Assembly: GCA_029776065.1 (NCBI GenBank)
Contig: JARVJP010000009.1
Location: 50,911-114,910, forward strand
DNA: 64,000 nt
Source: Nitrososphaeria archaeon
GTDB taxonomy: Archaea; Thermoproteota; Nitrososphaeria; JACIWG01
Reading direction: 5' to 3'
In this document: positions 1,158 to 64,000 of the stretch, piece by piece
How the letters are laid out: every line of letters starts with the position of its first letter
Numbering within the stretch: position 1 is the stretch's first letter
Notes under the pieces: generated by a model
What the model saw: the letters and a program-made list of their open reading frames with translations, nothing else
Database searches by the model: none
What the model was told of the DNA's origin: nothing
Made by a program: the position numbers and the translations under genes

Positions 1158-1894
1158 TCCAAAACCTTCAAACGCAGTAGAATTCGGCTTTTCTCAATTC
1201 TTTCATCCAATATTTGAACCGGCCTTGAAAAGGCTACTGCAGCAGCCTGGGCCACTATAGAGGATGGAAGGGAGCCCATTACGACCTTGAATCTTGGAAG
1301 GCCTACATCAACCCTAGGCCTATCGACTTCGACAACTATCTCAGAGCTTGATTCGACAACCTTGACGCCTTCAGCTACTTCGGAGAGGTCGACTAAGACA
1401 TTGCCGATTAAATCATCAAATCTTCTCTCACCCTCCTGTGTGGCGGACATGTTGACAAGCTCTGAAGCAGGGGGAATGATGAGCAGACCCAAGGACTTGC
1501 CAGCTTTGACAAGGAAGCTTCCAAAGCTTTTCGTCACTTGCTCGAGTTTAAACGTTGGTTCGGTTGAGAGTGGTATGTATGCGTAAGCCCTCTCAGCTGA
1601 TGGAATATAGATCGCCTTCTTTACTGCTCCAGTCGCTTCTAGAAGTACTTCTAAGTTTTCACATGAGGACTTGATAAACGAAGAAACCACCTCCTTTGGC
1701 ATAGGATGCATTGGTGTGGAAAGTACAGCCAAACCCAGGATCACTGCTCCAACACCGAGGGCTGTTAATGGTATGTTATTTAGGAGAAGGTAAGATCCAG
1801 CTGCAAGGAACACTCCAAAACATGTTAGGCTAACTCCAAAGAACGTCAACCTCTCATGCACTTGAAGAAACCACCGCCAACTTAAAGAAGCCAT
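1133..1894 (-). CDS. hypothetical 2-TM membrane protein, paralogue of 3395..4090
   Basis: 253 aa. An N-terminal TM hairpin (NNIPLTALGVGAVILGLAVLSTP) is followed by a soluble domain. It aligns along its whole length with the 231-aa ORF (NMPLTLLGLGFFAIGAFLIMTP; LLIIPPASE/LLLYPPTSF; C-terminal LRLKVL/VKLRLF). The start codon is uncertain. Confidence 0.55.
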   Translation of the reverse strand: MASLSWRWFLQVHERLTFFGVSLTCFGVFLAAGSYLLLNNIPLTALGVGAVILGLAVLSTPMHPMPKEVVSSFIKSSCENLEVLLEATGAVKKAIYIPSAERAYAYIPLSTEPTFKLEQVTKSFGSFLVKAGKSLGLLIIPPASELVNMSATQEGERRFDDLIGNVLVDLSEVAEGVKVVESSSEIVVEVDRPRVDVGLPRFKVVMGSLPSSIVAQAAAVAFSRPVQILDERIEKSRILLRLKVLDWTSTPYT

Positions 1895-3326
1895 ACTTCC
1901 TATACGAGGCTAAAAGTATCAGACACAATGTTAGGATGGATAACGAGAATACGATCGGATCCAACCTTATCCCCCAAGGAGTGTAATTCAATACTAATCC
2001 GACCAATGGAACAAGAGCTAAGCTTAATCCTATCGAGAGAGCGAGCCTTTCCAATGGGGAGAGGTCGCTTTCCTTCGGGTAAAGCGCTTGGATCAACGAG
2101 TATCCTGGTAGGAAGAGGACGAGTAGTGAGCCTAAAACGTATCTAGTGTATGTGATAATGGTTGTCTGAGGGGTGTAGATGGTTAATATGGTTGCTGCTA
2201 GTAGTGTTATGGTCATCGGAAAGGCTAGGTTCTGCTTAGAAAAGAGGTAACTAGGGAACGTGGTTGGAGGATTTAGGTCTTCGAGCTTTAATGCCTTGGA
2301 TTTAACCAGCTTAAACAGTTCCCGTGCCACGCTCCACTTCTCGTACTCAAGCTTGTCGCCTAACAATATGATGTTATTCACAGTAACTTTATTGTTTTTT
2401 GATAATAATGCCCTAACCTTTTTCCCAAAAGCGTTAGAGTCTAAACCCTCGTCTTTTGCTAATGTGACTTTCCATCCCTCGTAGAACCTAGACCATAGAA
2501 GCCAGATTCTACGTCTAAGGTACAGGGATGATCCTAAACCAATTGCTACAACAACACCTGAGGCAGAAACCATGTAAATAAACTGCGTATTTTTACGCTC
2601 TAAACCGGTTTGAGTGATCGTCGGCTCAAGCGAGAGCACTTGTCTCGCAAGCTTCTCTGCGCGCTCGTAGTCCCCTCCTTGAGCGTGTTCTACGGCCTGA
2701 TCCAACATCGCAACCACCTCTGTTACGTTCCCCCCAGCGTCCTCAGCCCTCCTAATGGAGAGAAGAGCCTCTATAAGGGTGGATTCTATGTAGGAAGGCA
2801 TCTTAGTTGGTAGCTGGGGTTGAGGCGCACCTACAGCTGGGTTTGTAACATTAAGCCAAAGCTGGTTCCAGCGTCCATAGTAGACGAAGTTTTGAGAGGC
2901 CTCATTGTAGACCCACATCTCGAAGACAAGCCTCAAGTTGTTCGCTTGCGAGTACAGGGTGACATTAAGAGGGATGATCGACGAGGAATTATGAGGGAGA
3001 ACCTTGTAGACCTCCATAAAGGGTTCTTCTGAGAGAGGCGTAGTTTCGTTAATGAAGGATCTGTTGGTTCCGGCCTTAACTAGAACTTTGTAGAACACTG
3101 TCTTTCCTTCGTGATTTCCTATGTAAAGGTGTAATATGAACACTGACCCAGCTACAACATCCTTTGGGTAATCACCTATCATCTTGTTCGACCCTAGTAA
3201 GCCCAGTTCTGAAAAGGGTTCTACGACCCTTCCAACGTTTACAGCTTGGACTATTGCGAAGACCGAGGCTACAACTATTATTGCCGTTATAACAGCTAAG
3301 ACTTCTTCGTCAAGCACCCAACTCAT
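1854..3326 (-). CDS. DUF1616-family archaeal membrane protein with a large extracytoplasmic domain
   Basis: The C-terminal block LFLPGYSLIQALYPKESDLSPLERLALSIGLSLALVPLVGLVLNYTPWGIRLDP matches my recollection of the DUF1616 signature. The protein has an N-terminal TM helix and several N-x-S/T sequons. Confidence 0.6.
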   Translation of the reverse strand: MSWVLDEEVLAVITAIIVVASVFAIVQAVNVGRVVEPFSELGLLGSNKMIGDYPKDVVAGSVFILHLYIGNHEGKTVFYKVLVKAGTNRSFINETTPLSEEPFMEVYKVLPHNSSSIIPLNVTLYSQANNLRLVFEMWVYNEASQNFVYYGRWNQLWLNVTNPAVGAPQPQLPTKMPSYIESTLIEALLSIRRAEDAGGNVTEVVAMLDQAVEHAQGGDYERAEKLARQVLSLEPTITQTGLERKNTQFIYMVSASGVVVAIGLGSSLYLRRRIWLLWSRFYEGWKVTLAKDEGLDSNAFGKKVRALLSKNNKVTVNNIILLGDKLEYEKWSVARELFKLVKSKALKLEDLNPPTTFPSYLFSKQNLAFPMTITLLAATILTIYTPQTTIITYTRYVLGSLLVLFLPGYSLIQALYPKESDLSPLERLALSIGLSLALVPLVGLVLNYTPWGIRLDPIVFSLSILTLCLILLASYRKYGFFKLAVVSSSA

Positions 3327-40202: not shown

Positions 40203-40298
40203 TAGCCCGGACCAGAGTTTCGGTCTTATCTTTAAGACTTTCGAACTGGTGTCAACGGGTCCAAAGCCCGCTATGCTTGACCACTACACCACCGGGCT
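40203..40298 (-). tRNA. tRNA-Gln(UUG) with a 23-nt intron at position 59/60 (T-loop)
   Basis: I folded this cloverleaf by hand. Acceptor AGCCCGG/CCGGGCU with A73; D-arm GUGU..GCAU; anticodon arm GCGGG-CUUUGGA-CCCGU (anticodon at 40262..40264); T-stem ACCAG/CUGGU. The T-loop is 30 nt unless 23 nt are removed. No CCA is encoded. Confidence 0.88.
40217..40239 (-). other. BHB intron of tRNA-Gln (non-canonical 59/60 position)
   Basis: The central 4-bp helix is UUCG(54-57)/CGAA, the 3-nt bulges are AAA and ACU, and the inner hairpin is GUCUUA-AAGA-UAAGAC. Cutting after the 2nd nt of each bulge leaves the canonical T-loop UUCGAAU. Confidence 0.8.
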
Positions 40299-59957: not shown

Positions 59958-62180
59958 TTATTCTTTGTCTATGAATTCCTCAGGAGATGGAGGAATTTCG
60001 CTTAAACCCTTTCTTTTCCTTATTGACGCGATTAATTGCGTAAGGATGCTTGTTGGAACAACATTCCATTCTTTAAAGTGGGTGTTCCACATGGCTTTCC
60101 CAGCTGTTGCTCCTCTCATTGCTTCACTAAGATCGAAGGTTTCTGCTGCTGGAATAACACCTTCTACAATTGTAAGAATGCCTTTCTGCTCAACATTAAG
60201 CATCCTACCTCTTCTAGCCGAGATAACACTAGCGATTGGTCCTATCAACTCACTACTTGCTTTGACCTCGATACCCAGAATTGGCTCTAATAGAGTTGGG
60301 TTGGCTAATAGCAAAGCACCTAGAATAGCTCTTCTAGAAGCGGGTAAAAGTTGTGCATATGTCCTATGAGCTGGATCTTCGTGAAACTCCGCGTGATGAA
60401 GTATTACCTTAATACCTCTACACGACTCTTGAGCAAGAGGGCCATTCTCCATCACGTCTGAGAAACCAACTTTTATTGAATCAATTGACTCTTGCATGAA
60501 TTGAACACCTTTAGTTGAATCAATAAATATATTACCTCTTGGGTCAACAGAGATCACGTTTCTGGCTTCGTCCGCATCCCATCCGTGGTCCCTTAATATC
60601 TTAGCTACAGTCTTCTTATCACTTTGTTCATTAATTGTATTGTTTCTGATCAGTTCAATTATTTCAGATGCTAATGGTTCGACTTTCATAAATATACGGT
60701 TATGCTTATTCGGGGATTTGGACATAACAGGACCAGCAGAACCACGGATCGTTTCACGATAGTTGATTAGTGGAGGAGTAGTTACAATTTCAAGTCCTGC
60801 TTGAGCAATAAGTGTTGTAGCGATTTCTAGATGAAGTACACCCATTCCTGACATAAGCATTTCCCCTGTTTCTTCATTTATTTTGACAACAAGGTTAGGA
60901 TCTTCAATTGAAATTTTCCTTAAAGTGTCGATCAGCTTAGGAAGATCGCGTGGGTACTTAGGTTCAACAGCAATAGTTACAACTGGTTCAGAAACATACT
61001 TTATTTGTTCAAATGGCGTTATGTCCTTAATTGAGGAAATCGTTTCTCCAGCACGAGCTGCGTCTAGACCAAGTAAAGCTGGAATGTTACCTGAACCTAT
61101 GACCCCAATCAATTCTCTAAATGGCCCCATAAACATATTAACGGATTGGATTCTAGCTTGCGTCCTTGCGTTACTTAAAAAGACCGTATCCCCATCATGC
61201 ACAGTACCAGAAAATAGTCTACCTACTGCTACAACACCAGCTTGTGGATCAACTACAACATTTGTGACCATCATCACTATAGGTCCTTTCTCATCACAAT
61301 TTACTAGAGAAATTCCTATATCAGAGTTGAGGTCGCCTTTCCATATTTTCGGTATACGATACTTCTGTGCAACGTGCGGAGGAGGATGATGTCTAACAAC
61401 CATGGATAAAACAGCTTCATGAAGTGGAAAATTTTCAGACAAAACCTTTAGATTACCTTCTTCATATGCTTTATAAATATCACTAAATTTTACACCTTTT
61501 TTCTGAGCGATCATGAAATTGAATCCCCATCTATCCTTTGCTGAACCAAAGGCTACACTACTATCTTGTATGCTTACCTTCCACTTTTGCTTATATTCAG
61601 GTTCAGCATATATTTCAACTAAATCATTAAATTCATTTACAATGTTTGCAAGCCAAGCCTGCATTTTATCTGGTGTAAGTTTTAATTCTTTAATCAACCT
61701 ATCAATTTTGTTTATATAAAGCACAGGACGAACTCGCTCCTCTAACGCCTGTCTAGTTACAGTTTCAGTTTGTGTCATAATACCTTCAACCGAATCTGAA
61801 ACGACAACGACACCATCAATTGCTCTGAGGCTTCGAGTGACCCTCCCTGTAAAGTCGATATGCCCTGGAGTGTCGATCAAATTTATAACGTAAGGGACGT
61901 TTTCATATTCATAATATAACGTTACATTCGCTGCTTTTATAGTCATCTGCCTTTGTTGCTCTAGATCCATATAATCTAAGGCAAGTGCTTGCCCCGCAAC
62001 AGAGGGACTGAGCATTCCGCAAGCAGCAAGAAGACTATCACTCATAGTCGTTTTTCCATGGTCTACGTGGGCAACAACACCTAGATAATTCGGGTCAGAA
62101 GTGCCCTTCTAAACCTTTCGAATCTGGTCTTTGTTGCCTATAATCTTTAATGCCTCTGAGGTAGTTTTATATCTTGGCAT
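59958..62180 (-). CDS. fusA: translation elongation factor aEF-2, split by a 30-nt BHB intron (exons 62117..62180 and 59958..62086)
   Basis: The track ORF starts just after the P-loop. The same frame continues upstream to ATG 62180 ([44 protein letters not shown]) with a single TAG. Removing 62087..62116 gives a 730-aa protein whose first 35 residues match the length of the crenarchaeal aEF-2 N-terminus as I recall it. Confidence 0.85.
62087..62116 (-). other. candidate bulge-helix-bulge intron within the aEF-2 coding sequence
   Basis: RNA: AGA-UUCG-AAA-GGUU-U-AGAAG-GGCA-CUUCU-GACC-CGAA-UUA-UCU. The central 4-bp helix is UUCG/CGAA, flanked by the 3-nt bulges AAA and UUA, with inner and outer helices. 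The insert contains the in-frame TAG (62109..62111). Confidence 0.7.
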
Positions 62181-62234
62181 ATCAAATCATACACTAACCC
62201 ACTAAATGAAGACTTTTAAAATATTTTGGTATTC

Positions 62235-63534: not shown

Positions 63535-63542
63535 TTGAATCT

Positions 63543-64000
63543 CTATATATGGAGAAAGTAGATAGCATATATAAAAACGATCATAAAACAGATAGCAACA
63601 GTTGCAGCAAAGTAATCTCTTTTTCTTAGGTGTAAAGAATAATAGGAGGTCTTCTTTTTAGAGAAACCATAAGCGCGTGACTCCATTGCCTCTGCTAGTT
63701 CTTCGCTTCTAATAATAGCTTGTACAATTAATGGGATAAGAACGGGAATATAATTCTTAATCCTCTTTATAAAATTGCCTTTTTCGATTTCTAAACCTCT
63801 TGAACGTTGGGAGTCTAATATCTGAATTGCATCAAGCATTATTACAGGAACAAATCGAACAGCCGTTACAAACGCGAATATCAAGTCATATGGAAGGTAA
63901 AATGATTTCATGACCAGTTCTAATTCATCTGGTGAAGAAGTCAAAAAGAAGATCGAAGTGGAGGATACGACAGAGATGAACCTTAATGAGATAATTATTG
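63543..64000 (-). CDS. ECF/cobalt transporter transmembrane (T, CbiQ/EcfT) component; the N-terminus lies beyond the right window edge
   Basis: AVRFVPVIMLDAIQILDSQRSRGLE and AEAMESRAYG blocks. The frame stays open from 63944 to 64000. Confidence 0.7.
   Translation of the reverse strand, partial: IIISLRFISVVSSTSIFFLTSSPDELELVMKSFYLPYDLIFAFVTAVRFVPVIMLDAIQILDSQRSRGLEIEKGNFIKRIKNYIPVLIPLIVQAIIRSEELAEAMESRAYGFSKKKTSYYSLHLRKRDYFAATVAICFMIVFIYAIYFLHI

Follow-up and report, generated by a model that had tools for sequence, protein, structure and literature searches.

The pre-mRNAs of cbf5 in Crenarchaeota carry introns that are spliced in vivo (PMC2738675), and as of 2020 cbf5 was the only other gene with a bulge-helix-bulge (BHB) intron reported in archaeal mRNA besides Haloferax volcanii HVO_1309, where the intron lies in the 5′ untranslated region (UTR) (PMC7714728). 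In 2025 only cbf5 papers were cited for BHB introns in coding regions (PMC12397907). Here we describe a 30-nt insert in the gene for the translation elongation factor aEF-2 in a 64,000-nt stretch of contig JARVJP010000009.1 from a Nitrososphaeria archaeon (the window; coordinates refer to it, and the gene lies on its minus strand). This insert is very probably a spliced archaeal BHB intron, which splits the Asn23 codon after its first base. A sequence-only reading of the window had proposed such an intron, adding that BHB introns in coding genes were documented essentially only for cbf5 and that one in a translation GTPase would be new. The first of these statements agrees with the literature once the 5′-UTR case of Haloferax is added (PMC7714728, PMC12397907). 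As for the second, the full-text literature searched gave no description of an intron in aEF-2; subscription journals lie outside that coverage, and an earlier mention is possible. Casposon integration into an ef-2 gene has been reported and is unrelated to the aEF-2 intron (PMC6563490).

The aEF-2 insert resembles the cbf5 intron in being a short BHB intron in a protein gene, in the hetero-oligomeric endonuclease presumed to act on it, in its lineage-specific presence and loss, and in the gene-prediction errors that accompany it. The differences lie in the host, which is a pseudouridine synthase in one case and a translational GTPase in the other, and in the distribution, which covers Sulfolobales and Desulfurococcales for cbf5 and Nitrososphaeria and Bathyarchaeia for aEF-2. 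Splicing of cbf5 has been shown experimentally, whereas that of aEF-2 is predicted. The cbf5 introns were reportedly studied by Watanabe in 2002, Yoshinari in 2006 and Yokobori in 2009 (PMC2738675). Many of them have been reported with relaxed motifs; the aEF-2 intron is a strict hBHBh′ with an exonic helix of ~14 bp. Membership of the cbf5 intron family itself was rejected, as the host gene is aEF-2 by its Pfam domains. At the level of sequence the insert shows every feature by which an archaeal BHB intron is recognized, and it would work like the cbf5 intron in another gene and in other classes of archaea.

Other known systems share parts of this arrangement. Noncanonical tRNA introns of the TACK archaea, of which the window contains one at position 59/60 of a tRNA-Gln, agree with the aEF-2 insert in core and cut rule and presumably in the enzyme, but in aEF-2 the intron sits in an mRNA, recognition has no tRNA body to rely on, and the outer helix is formed from codons. 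The BHB introns of crenarchaeal rRNA genes, the mini-introns there that have no open reading frame (ORF), and the pre-rRNA processing sites likewise have BHB boundaries and insert in the most conserved stretches of essential genes; the rRNA introns are also sporadic among close relatives and co-occur with homing-endonuclease elements, to which an intein at Lys33 in relatives corresponds here. They differ in that the aEF-2 host is protein-coding and that none of the aEF-2 introns, which reach 63 nt at most, was seen to contain a homing-endonuclease ORF. The HVO_1309 intron is also an mRNA substrate of the archaeal splicing endonuclease, but it lies in an untranslated leader and leaves the reading frame uninterrupted. 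In HAC1/XBP1 splicing of eukaryotes, IRE1 acts with a tRNA ligase or RtcB, the XBP1 intron is 26 nt long, and the change of frame gives the active protein. This resembles the aEF-2 case in the very short mRNA intron, the structure-recognizing protein endonuclease and the joining of exons by a tRNA ligase, while IRE1 is unrelated to EndA, acts on twin stem-loops and has a demonstrated regulatory role.

The insert in the aEF-2 gene and in its relatives

The called ORF (59958..62045) encodes 695 aa from a Met at 62045 (MSDSLL) and contains all aEF-2 domains without the P-loop. The same frame extends upstream to an ATG at 62180, and this extension encodes the N-terminus together with the G1 motif. 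Between the aEF-2 start and the P-loop there are exactly 10 surplus codons, one of which is an in-frame TAG (62111..62109). Deletion of 62116..62087 (AGGTTTAGAAGGGCACTTCTGACCCGAATT) in silico gives a 2193-nt ORF of 730 aa in which the P-loop is restored. Intronless orthologues are exactly 730 aa long and cover 100% of the spliced window protein, and the precomputed Pfam assignment for aEF-2 (protein P0001) lists GTP_EFTU, EF-G_D2, EFG_III, EFG_IV and EFG_C. The boundaries of the insert are given independently, and in agreement, by homology and by the rule that each 3-nt bulge is cut after its second nucleotide; they place it at phase 1 of the Asn23 codon, just before the P-loop and 64 nt into the gene. 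The sequence-only reading had described an ORF beginning after the G1 site, a frame open to ATG 62180 with the P-loop cut off by the single TAG, and a region 10 codons too long whose correction gives 730 aa. Re-reading and translating the frame returned the same picture, and the length is that of the orthologues.

The case for an intron is decided by comparative evidence and not by structure. In a scan of genomes, with one genome per species, we classified the best 80 aEF-2 loci: 20 have an insert exactly at the Asn23 phase-1 position (site A), nine have an insert elsewhere in the P-loop codons, one has an intein in the P-loop, 49 are uninterrupted and one is a truncated locus. Together with five contigs of close relatives and four Bathyarchaeia contigs, site A is occupied in 29 loci, by inserts of 13 lengths (26, 29, 30, 31, 32, 34, 36, 37, 39, 42, 45, 49 and 63 nt). 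The window and the 20 genome loci, which make up the site-A set of 21 sequences, contain lengths of 26, 30, 31, 32, 37, 42, 45, 49 and 63 nt. In this set 15 of the 21 inserts are not a multiple of three, and all six that are in frame contain a stop. The pattern TTCG, A[AT][AT], GG...CC, CGAA, TNA, T[CT]T is present in every one of the 21, and a central helix of 4 bp with two 3-nt bulges is kept in all 29 loci. The 5′ strand of the central helix, UUCG, is invariant in all Nitrososphaeria carriers; the 5′ bulge is AAA or AAU in all carriers, and the 3′ bulge is UNA in all Nitrososphaeria carriers and AGA or AUA in Bathyarchaeia. Splicing by the bulge rule restores the frame in every site-A carrier and leads in all 21 sequences through DQIRN[LF]G into the P-loop, where uninterrupted orthologues read DQIRN[ILF]G[IV][IV]AHVDHGKTT. 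In silico the cut rule thus gives back the frame and the conserved DQIRN[ILF]G for each of the 13 intron lengths.

The closest relative, with 97% protein identity, has near-identical exons and the same gene neighborhood, and its intron is 29 nt instead of 30 nt long, with a C-G pair in place of the U-G of the window. It was found on nine contigs from JGI, ENA and Logan assemblies. A relative with 90% protein identity has a 34-nt intron at site A. Since the length drifts by a single base between near-identical genes, the insert cannot be translated sequence. In the Bathyarchaeia contigs (L094, at 1460..1495, L098, L099 and L100) an intron of 36 or 39 nt occupies the same Asn phase-1 site, with a central helix of UCCG/CGGG or UCCG/CGGA in place of UUCG/CGAA. 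In L098, L099 and L100 the intron lies ~60 nt upstream of the called start, and NCBI labels the Bathyarchaeia genes 'GTP-binding protein, partial'. All four contigs end within aEF-2, 94–148 codons past the called start; a downstream element in Bathyarchaeia aEF-2, for example a polymorphic insertion or an intein, may break the assemblies.

The first exon behaves as coding sequence. Its 21 codons are intact in all 21 site-A sequences, while the other two frames contain stops, and the start ATG is present in 20 of them; in the remaining sequence (L011) ACG stands in its place, with a GTG three codons upstream. In pairwise comparison exon 1 has dN 0.12 versus dS 1.2, that is, purifying selection, and the 709 codons beyond exon 1 are intact, with 86–97% identity among relatives. 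A TATA-like motif, listed for the window in Table 1, is found at the same distance from the start in L001–L005 and L103, and no comparable element precedes Met36.

The RNA motif and the fit of the exons to it

The sequence-only reading drew the insert and its flanks as a BHB fold. The pairing can be drawn as proposed, with a 4-bp central helix, two 3-nt bulges on opposite strands, each lying 3′ of its own strand of that helix, and flanking helices h and h′, which is the strict hBHBh′ arrangement; taken alone, however, this fold is not significant, as motifs of this kind are common in the window (see below). The outer helix, described as AGA/UCU continuing CC-A/U-GG, is present and was described too short. 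It comprises ~14 bp, with AGA/UCU followed by ACC/GGU and then by GGCAACAA/UUGUUGCC. The 71-nt region has a minimum free energy (MFE) of -28.4 kcal/mol, with z = -5.0 versus shuffles, and the canonical hBHBh′ structure has -27.5 kcal/mol, 0.9 above the MFE.

To measure covariation we used a gap-free alignment of 62 columns that covers the exonic flanks and the BHB core of 17 distinct sequences and leaves out the hairpin's variable part. Pairing in the central helix is complete (100%), one column being U-A in 15 sequences and C-G in two. The outer helix is 88% paired, or 92% in the 15 Nitrososphaeria sequences alone, and has compensatory columns of C-G/U-A (6/8), G-C/A-U/G-U (6/4/5) and A-U/G-C (10/2). 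For the whole structure the values are 91.5% in all sequences, as against 32–51% in a control in which the partner strand was slid by 1–3 columns, and 94% in the 15 from Nitrososphaeria; over all slid controls the range is 32–52%. The UCCG change in Bathyarchaeia is a compensation between an exonic base, synonymous in an Ile codon, and an intronic base. The inner hairpins are largely unrelated in sequence, closure at GG..CC being found in 20 of 20 distinct sequences, and levels 3–8 of their stem have 2–5 pair types each, in pairs that were taken from per-sequence folds and are hence biased towards pairing. Eighteen of the 20 hairpins are more stable than shuffles (fraction as stable ≤ 0.02); of the other two, L020 lies at the border (0.053) and L011 gains no stability over its shuffles. 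The sequence-only reading had named comparison with close relatives, for the insert and for pairing kept by covariation, as a way to check the intron; both the insert, in the 29 loci, and the covariation were found.

The exons are fitted to this structure. At 14 outer-helix positions pairing is 12.2/14 in carriers versus 7.9/14 in 56 distinct intronless orthologues. The Ile-Arg-Asn codons read ATT CGA A in all Nitrososphaeria carriers and ATC CGA A in Bathyarchaeia, while intronless genes have ATT AGG, ATA AGG, ATC CGC, ATA CGG and others for Ile-Arg. Because the carriers of each class use one codon set and intronless genes many, we conclude that the flanking codons have been selected for RNA pairing. 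The window clade has Val-Val-Ala (GTT GTT GCC, 62070..62085) where most intronless orthologues have Ile-Ile-Ala. In the exonic helix these codons pair with Gly-Asn-Lys (GGC AAC AA) to make up its distal 8 bp. The RNA structure seems to have shaped the protein sequence of aEF-2 at Val-Val-Ala.

Table 1. Features of the aEF-2 gene, its predicted RNA motif and the tRNA-Gln gene in the window, followed by candidate introns at other sites of aEF-2 in relatives (L numbers denote loci outside the window; arrows mark cuts)
Feature	Position	Strand	Intron length	Remarks
aEF-2 exon 1	62117..62180	-		ATG 62180..62178; 21 codons and first base of Asn23 codon
Predicted BHB intron AGGUUUAGAAGGGCACUUCUGACCCGAAUU	62087..62116	-	30 nt	From bulge cut rule; in-frame UAG 62111..62109
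aEF-2 exon 2	59958..62086	-		Last two bases of Asn23 to stop; includes called 695-aa ORF
Whole hBHBh′ element in pre-mRNA	62070..62138	-		Outer exonic helix, central helix, two bulges, inner hairpin
Outer helix, 5′ strand GGCAACAAAGACCAGA	62123..62138	-		Codons Gly14-Ile21
Outer helix, 3′ strand UCUAGGUGUUGUUGCC	62070..62085	-		Codons Asn23-Ala27
Central helix, 5′ strand UUCG	62119..62122	-		Exonic, codons ATT CGA
Central helix, 3′ strand CGAA	62089..62092	-		Intronic
5′ bulge AAA	62116..62118	-		Predicted cleavage between 62117 and 62116
3′ bulge UUA	62086..62088	-		Predicted cleavage between 62087 and 62086
Inner intron hairpin GGUU-U-AGAAG GGCA CUUCU-GACC	62093..62115	-		9 bp
TATA-box-like TTTAAAAG	62213..62220	-		~36 nt upstream of ATG 62180; probable promoter element
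tRNA-Gln(UUG) gene	40203..40298	-	23 nt	BHB intron 40239..40217, T-loop position 59/60
Candidate intron in L078	cut after His28		30 nt	GCGC AC↓A...GCGA TG↓G; central helix 3/4 paired
Candidate intron in L062	Asp30 phase 1		29 nt	ACGT AG↓G...GCGT AG↓A
Candidate intron in L064, L068	Lys33 phase 1		31 nt	ACGG AA↓G...CCGT TK↓A
Candidate intron in L065–L067	Lys33 phase 1		32 nt	ATGG TA↓T...CCAT AG↓A
Candidate intron in L059, L060	Lys33 phase 2		23 nt	CGGG AA↓A...CCCG AG↓A

Predicted splicing and the alternatives to it

In the splicing that we propose, codons 14–21 would pair with codons 23–27 in the primary transcript to give a long exonic helix, which would present a motif consisting of the UUCG/CGAA helix and the bulges AAA and UUA, closed by the 9-bp intronic hairpin. 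The tRNA-splicing endonuclease, expected to be an (alpha-beta)2 enzyme in this lineage, would cut after the second base of each bulge, and an RtcB-type ligase would join the exons to ...CAG AUU CGA A↓AU CUA GGU.... The predicted spliced junction is GACCAGATTCGAA↓ATCTAGGTGTTGTTGCC, and that of the circularized intron would be ...GACCCGAATT↓AGGTTTAGAAG.... Only the spliced RNA would be read through to the P-loop and give the 730-aa GTPase, while the unspliced RNA would give a 23-residue peptide. What we show, in silico, is the motif with its position, conservation and covariation, the repair of the frame and the constraint on exon 1; the enzymes, the splicing in vivo and any biological role we infer. 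The intron reading as first put forward, in which splicing recreates RN(I/L)G, is likewise supported by the recurrence at one site, the 13 lengths, the covariation and the exon-1 constraint.

Several observations weigh against this reading. The RNAfold MFE structure of the 71-nt region does not include the central helix, and a BHB scanner that permits G-U pairs and lengths of 12–110 nt found 316 BHB-like motifs on both strands of the AT-rich window, so that a single fold carries little weight. In the databases no protein was found in which exon 1 from intron-bearing lineages is linked to the P-loop; matches to the spliced N-terminus in a protein search did not exceed 86% identity and included no exon 1 of such a lineage, and a DNA scan of metagenome contigs for the spliced junction gave 13 genomic intronless genes of other lineages and no cDNA. 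It is possible that a second intact aEF-2 copy is present elsewhere in the genome, beyond the 64-kb window. Some relatives come from long-read assemblies, which are prone to indels; the pattern is nevertheless kept in the short-read assemblies of many studies.

With regard to the scanner background, 52 of the 316 motifs would fuse ORFs, separate genes among them, and the aEF-2 motif is not among the strongest by the scanner's counts of contiguous pairs. Motifs joining the RFC small subunit with HisRS (36386) and motifs joining NadB/NadA/NadC (11361, 12266) were rejected as chance matches, the genes in question being complete and separate. The scan of both strands found no additional mRNA intron in the window. 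Because BHB-like motifs are so common by chance the fold of one sequence proves nothing by itself. The aEF-2 motif goes beyond chance because it lies at essentially the sole pair of cuts that repairs the gene, and because the arrangement recurs in relatives.

The annotated ORF would be real if aEF-2 started at Met36 (or Met46), the upstream 135 nt being decayed or a mini-ORF and the P-loop being dispensable or supplied in trans. This is what gene callers predict in the window and also in 45 of the 120 closest relatives in the database. Its product would be without the G1/P-loop that all 49 uninterrupted loci possess, even though, upstream of Met36, conservation of the P-loop codons and of exon 1 is perfect, with dN/dS ~0.1 and the start codon kept. 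The promoter-like element precedes exon 1 and not Met36, and the insert varies freely in length where its flanks do not. Since exon 1 is constrained and its start is kept, we regard the annotated start as excluded for practical purposes and extremely unlikely to be used. The view that the 30 nt or the TAG is an assembly error, or that the gene is a dead copy next to a second working one, draws on the small size of the fragment (64 kb) and on the indels of metagenome assemblies, long-read ones especially. Against it, the same structured insert occurs in ~29 loci from independent projects and platforms (the 97% relative by itself accounts for nine contigs), the other 709 codons are intact at 86–97% identity, no database relative above 78% identity is uninterrupted, and each metagenome-assembled genome (MAG) appears once among the best 80 loci. 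The constraint on exon 1 and the intact, conserved 709 codons downstream therefore exclude a pseudogene, and artefact and pseudogene together have a probability close to nil.

A different class of explanation retains the insert in the mRNA and has the ribosome overcome it by stop readthrough, frameshifting or bypassing of the gene-60 type. For the window by itself this is conceivable, since its 30-nt insert keeps the frame and has one UAG, readthrough would give 740 aa, and a CGA is found at the take-off side as well as close to the 3′ end of the insert. Among relatives, however, inserts of 26, 29, 31, 32, 34, 37 or 49 nt fit no single rule, the peptides 'encoded' by in-frame inserts are wholly different and so reveal no coding constraint, and in the window landing on the 3′ CGA resumes at AUU AUC UAG, an immediate stop. 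What is conserved is the base-paired BHB and not a peptide or a hop signal, and we consider recoding highly improbable. Programmed bypass or readthrough was also rejected as a candidate class on the grounds that every residue class modulo 3 is represented among the lengths and the peptides are unrelated. A group I or group II intron was rejected because inserts of 26–63 nt compare with a ribozyme core of several hundred nucleotides, and no Rfam intron family is found in the window. An intein at the window site was rejected because the insert is a stretch of 10 codons, one of them a stop.

A further alternative concerns function only and accepts the BHB intron. In it the intron is kept as a checkpoint that ties aEF-2 synthesis to endonuclease/RtcB capacity, temperature or folding. 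Retention of one site across Nitrososphaeria and Bathyarchaeia with co-adapted exonic flanks, and a location no more than 64 nt from the start of a gene that is essential and highly expressed, would fit such a role. On the other hand, the intron has been lost precisely in many nested lineages with no visible consequence, its loop is unconstrained in sequence and length, and other lineages have different nearby introns or none, a pattern expected of tolerated mobile or selfish elements. A checkpoint is therefore unlikely in our judgment. The most economical view of the BHB intron is that it is a tolerated, anciently acquired selfish or neutral element, to which the exonic flanks have co-adapted in a way that keeps the fold.

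Distribution, origin and significance

In a neighbor-joining tree built from aEF-2 itself, and to be read as a rough guide only, the site-A carriers form one large clade consisting of the window's group, Nitrosocaldus and 'Nitrosomirales'-type sequences, inside which intronless subclades are nested (L006–L010, L014 and L063; L012). The Nitrosocaldus introns are 45–63 nt long, and habitats of carriers include peat and hot springs. Taken with the Bathyarchaeia carriers, the tree is consistent with an intron that was gained long ago and then lost precisely several times; gain on more than one occasion, or horizontal transfer, is also possible. The site-A intron is probably widespread and old, and not peculiar to the window genome. 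The 13 metagenomic intronless genes (L081–L093; Nitrososphaera-like and Nitrosopumilus-like) read CAR ATT CGA AAT TTY GG at the site, which fits precise loss or a pre-existing target sequence and could be a coincidence of codon choice.

The introns at other sites were identified with relaxed BHB criteria, and in each locus exactly one candidate restores AHVDHGKTT (Table 1). They lie in the first ~130 nt of aEF-2, with an outer helix that is minimal or absent, corresponding to the relaxed HBh′ form, and are scattered among near-identical intronless Nitrososphaerales genes, which suggests recent gains. The Lys33 phase-1 position is held by two unrelated intron sequences. With site A there are five intron positions within ~11 codons, namely Asn23 phase 1, after His28, Asp30 phase 1 and Lys33 phases 1 and 2. 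An intein of ~530–550 residues between Lys33 and Thr34 (GK↓CVSG...VHN↓TT) is present in L041 (about 2950..3010), P0069, P0091 and P0116; two of the three intein proteins (P0091 and P0116) have a LAGLIDADG Pfam hit, and two of the intron sites lie at a distance of one or two bases from the intein site. Further into the gene, L095 and L096 from an unrelated lineage (16 contigs, several samples) have aEF-2 split into ORFs of 142 and 604 aa by a 31-nt insert at codon 125 (about 2973..3003). A relaxed BHB, AGGU AA↓A ... GCCC AG↓U, removes it to give DAVEEVMVQTET, and the spliced product DAVEEV-M-VQTET matches Bathyarchaeia fragments (IDAVEEVMVQTET).

From these sequences the P-loop codons look like a hotspot for intervening elements. 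It is possible, though doubtful, that this segment has been entered repeatedly and independently by mobile BHB mini-introns and the intein, and that the Asn23 intron predates the split of Nitrososphaeria and Bathyarchaeia. If true, this would point to active intron insertion in TACK archaea that targets a conserved mRNA or DNA sequence, for which reverse splicing by endonuclease and ligase, or decayed homing elements, are candidate routes. The Asn23 intron may derive from a tRNA T-loop (59/60) intron, an origin that we propose because its exon junction CCAGA-UUCGAA↓A-UCUGG imitates a T-arm.

The tRNA-Gln(UUG) gene of the window provides such a T-loop intron. Its core, ACCAG UUCG AA↓A GUCUUA-AAGA-UAAGAC CGAA AC↓U CUGGU, closely resembles that of aEF-2 (ACCAGA UUCG AA↓A ... 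CGAA compared with ACCAG UUCG AA↓A ... CGAA), and removal of the intron gives the T-loop UUCGAAU. The 7-nt T-loop and the use of the same cut rule had been pointed out in the sequence-only reading and hold. The gene is missed by ARAGORN and by the Rfam tRNA model at the gathering threshold. Because of this intron the organism needs an endonuclease that cuts the UUCG-AAA/CGAA core outside an anticodon loop, an ability of (alpha-beta)2 and epsilon2 enzymes. Broad-specificity (alpha-beta)2 endonucleases, which accept non-anticodon BHB sites, have been assigned to the TACK group, Thaumarchaeota included (PMC5829648). In the 795 kb of loci analysed no further T-loop-type UUCG...CGAA introns were found beyond the window tRNA-Gln and the aEF-2 sites.

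The window has a G+C content of 38%, and its nearest relatives are MAGs of uncultured Nitrososphaeria (formerly Thaumarchaeota). The aEF-2 gene is preceded by genes for a SIS-domain protein and an ERCC4/XPF nuclease and followed by those for a winged-helix protein and Cdc6/Orc1, an order also present in close relatives. Directly upstream of the ERCC4/XPF start codon is an AT-rich BHB-like hairpin with a 10-bp stem (63536..63576, minus strand). As an intron fusing an upstream ORF to XPF it was rejected and judged a chance or regulatory feature, the short form of XPF being already complete. Truncations further downstream in aEF-2 (P0122, P0125, P0142) were rejected as introns and attributed to sequencing frameshifts, since they are on long-read contigs whose neighboring genes are also fragmented. 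In L097, L101 and L102 (ENA ERZ250395xx, long-read soil) aEF-2 and its neighbors are broken into many small ORFs, which are frameshift errors and not introns; such contigs are a caution for automated intron surveys.

Of the 120 closest aEF-2 entries in the database (P0001–P0120), 45 start after the P-loop, with 695, 685 or 702 aa, and 12 have artificial N-termini derived from the intron or from out-of-frame exon 1, such as MARKTKFEWCKGKSLLPNNFGVIAH. About half of these entries are thus mis-annotated because of the intron. As aEF-2 is a widely used phylogenetic marker, archaeal gene callers need a BHB-aware step.

For more than 20 years the evidence for protein-gene introns removed by the tRNA-splicing machinery has rested on essentially cbf5. 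If confirmed, the aEF-2 case would place such an intron in a universal and essential translation GTPase, and would extend the phenomenon to Nitrososphaeria, the lineage of the ammonia oxidizers and their relatives, and to Bathyarchaeia. It would also mean that several such introns can coexist in different places of a single gene, and would provide a natural system for the gain, loss and tolerance of introns under coupled transcription and translation.

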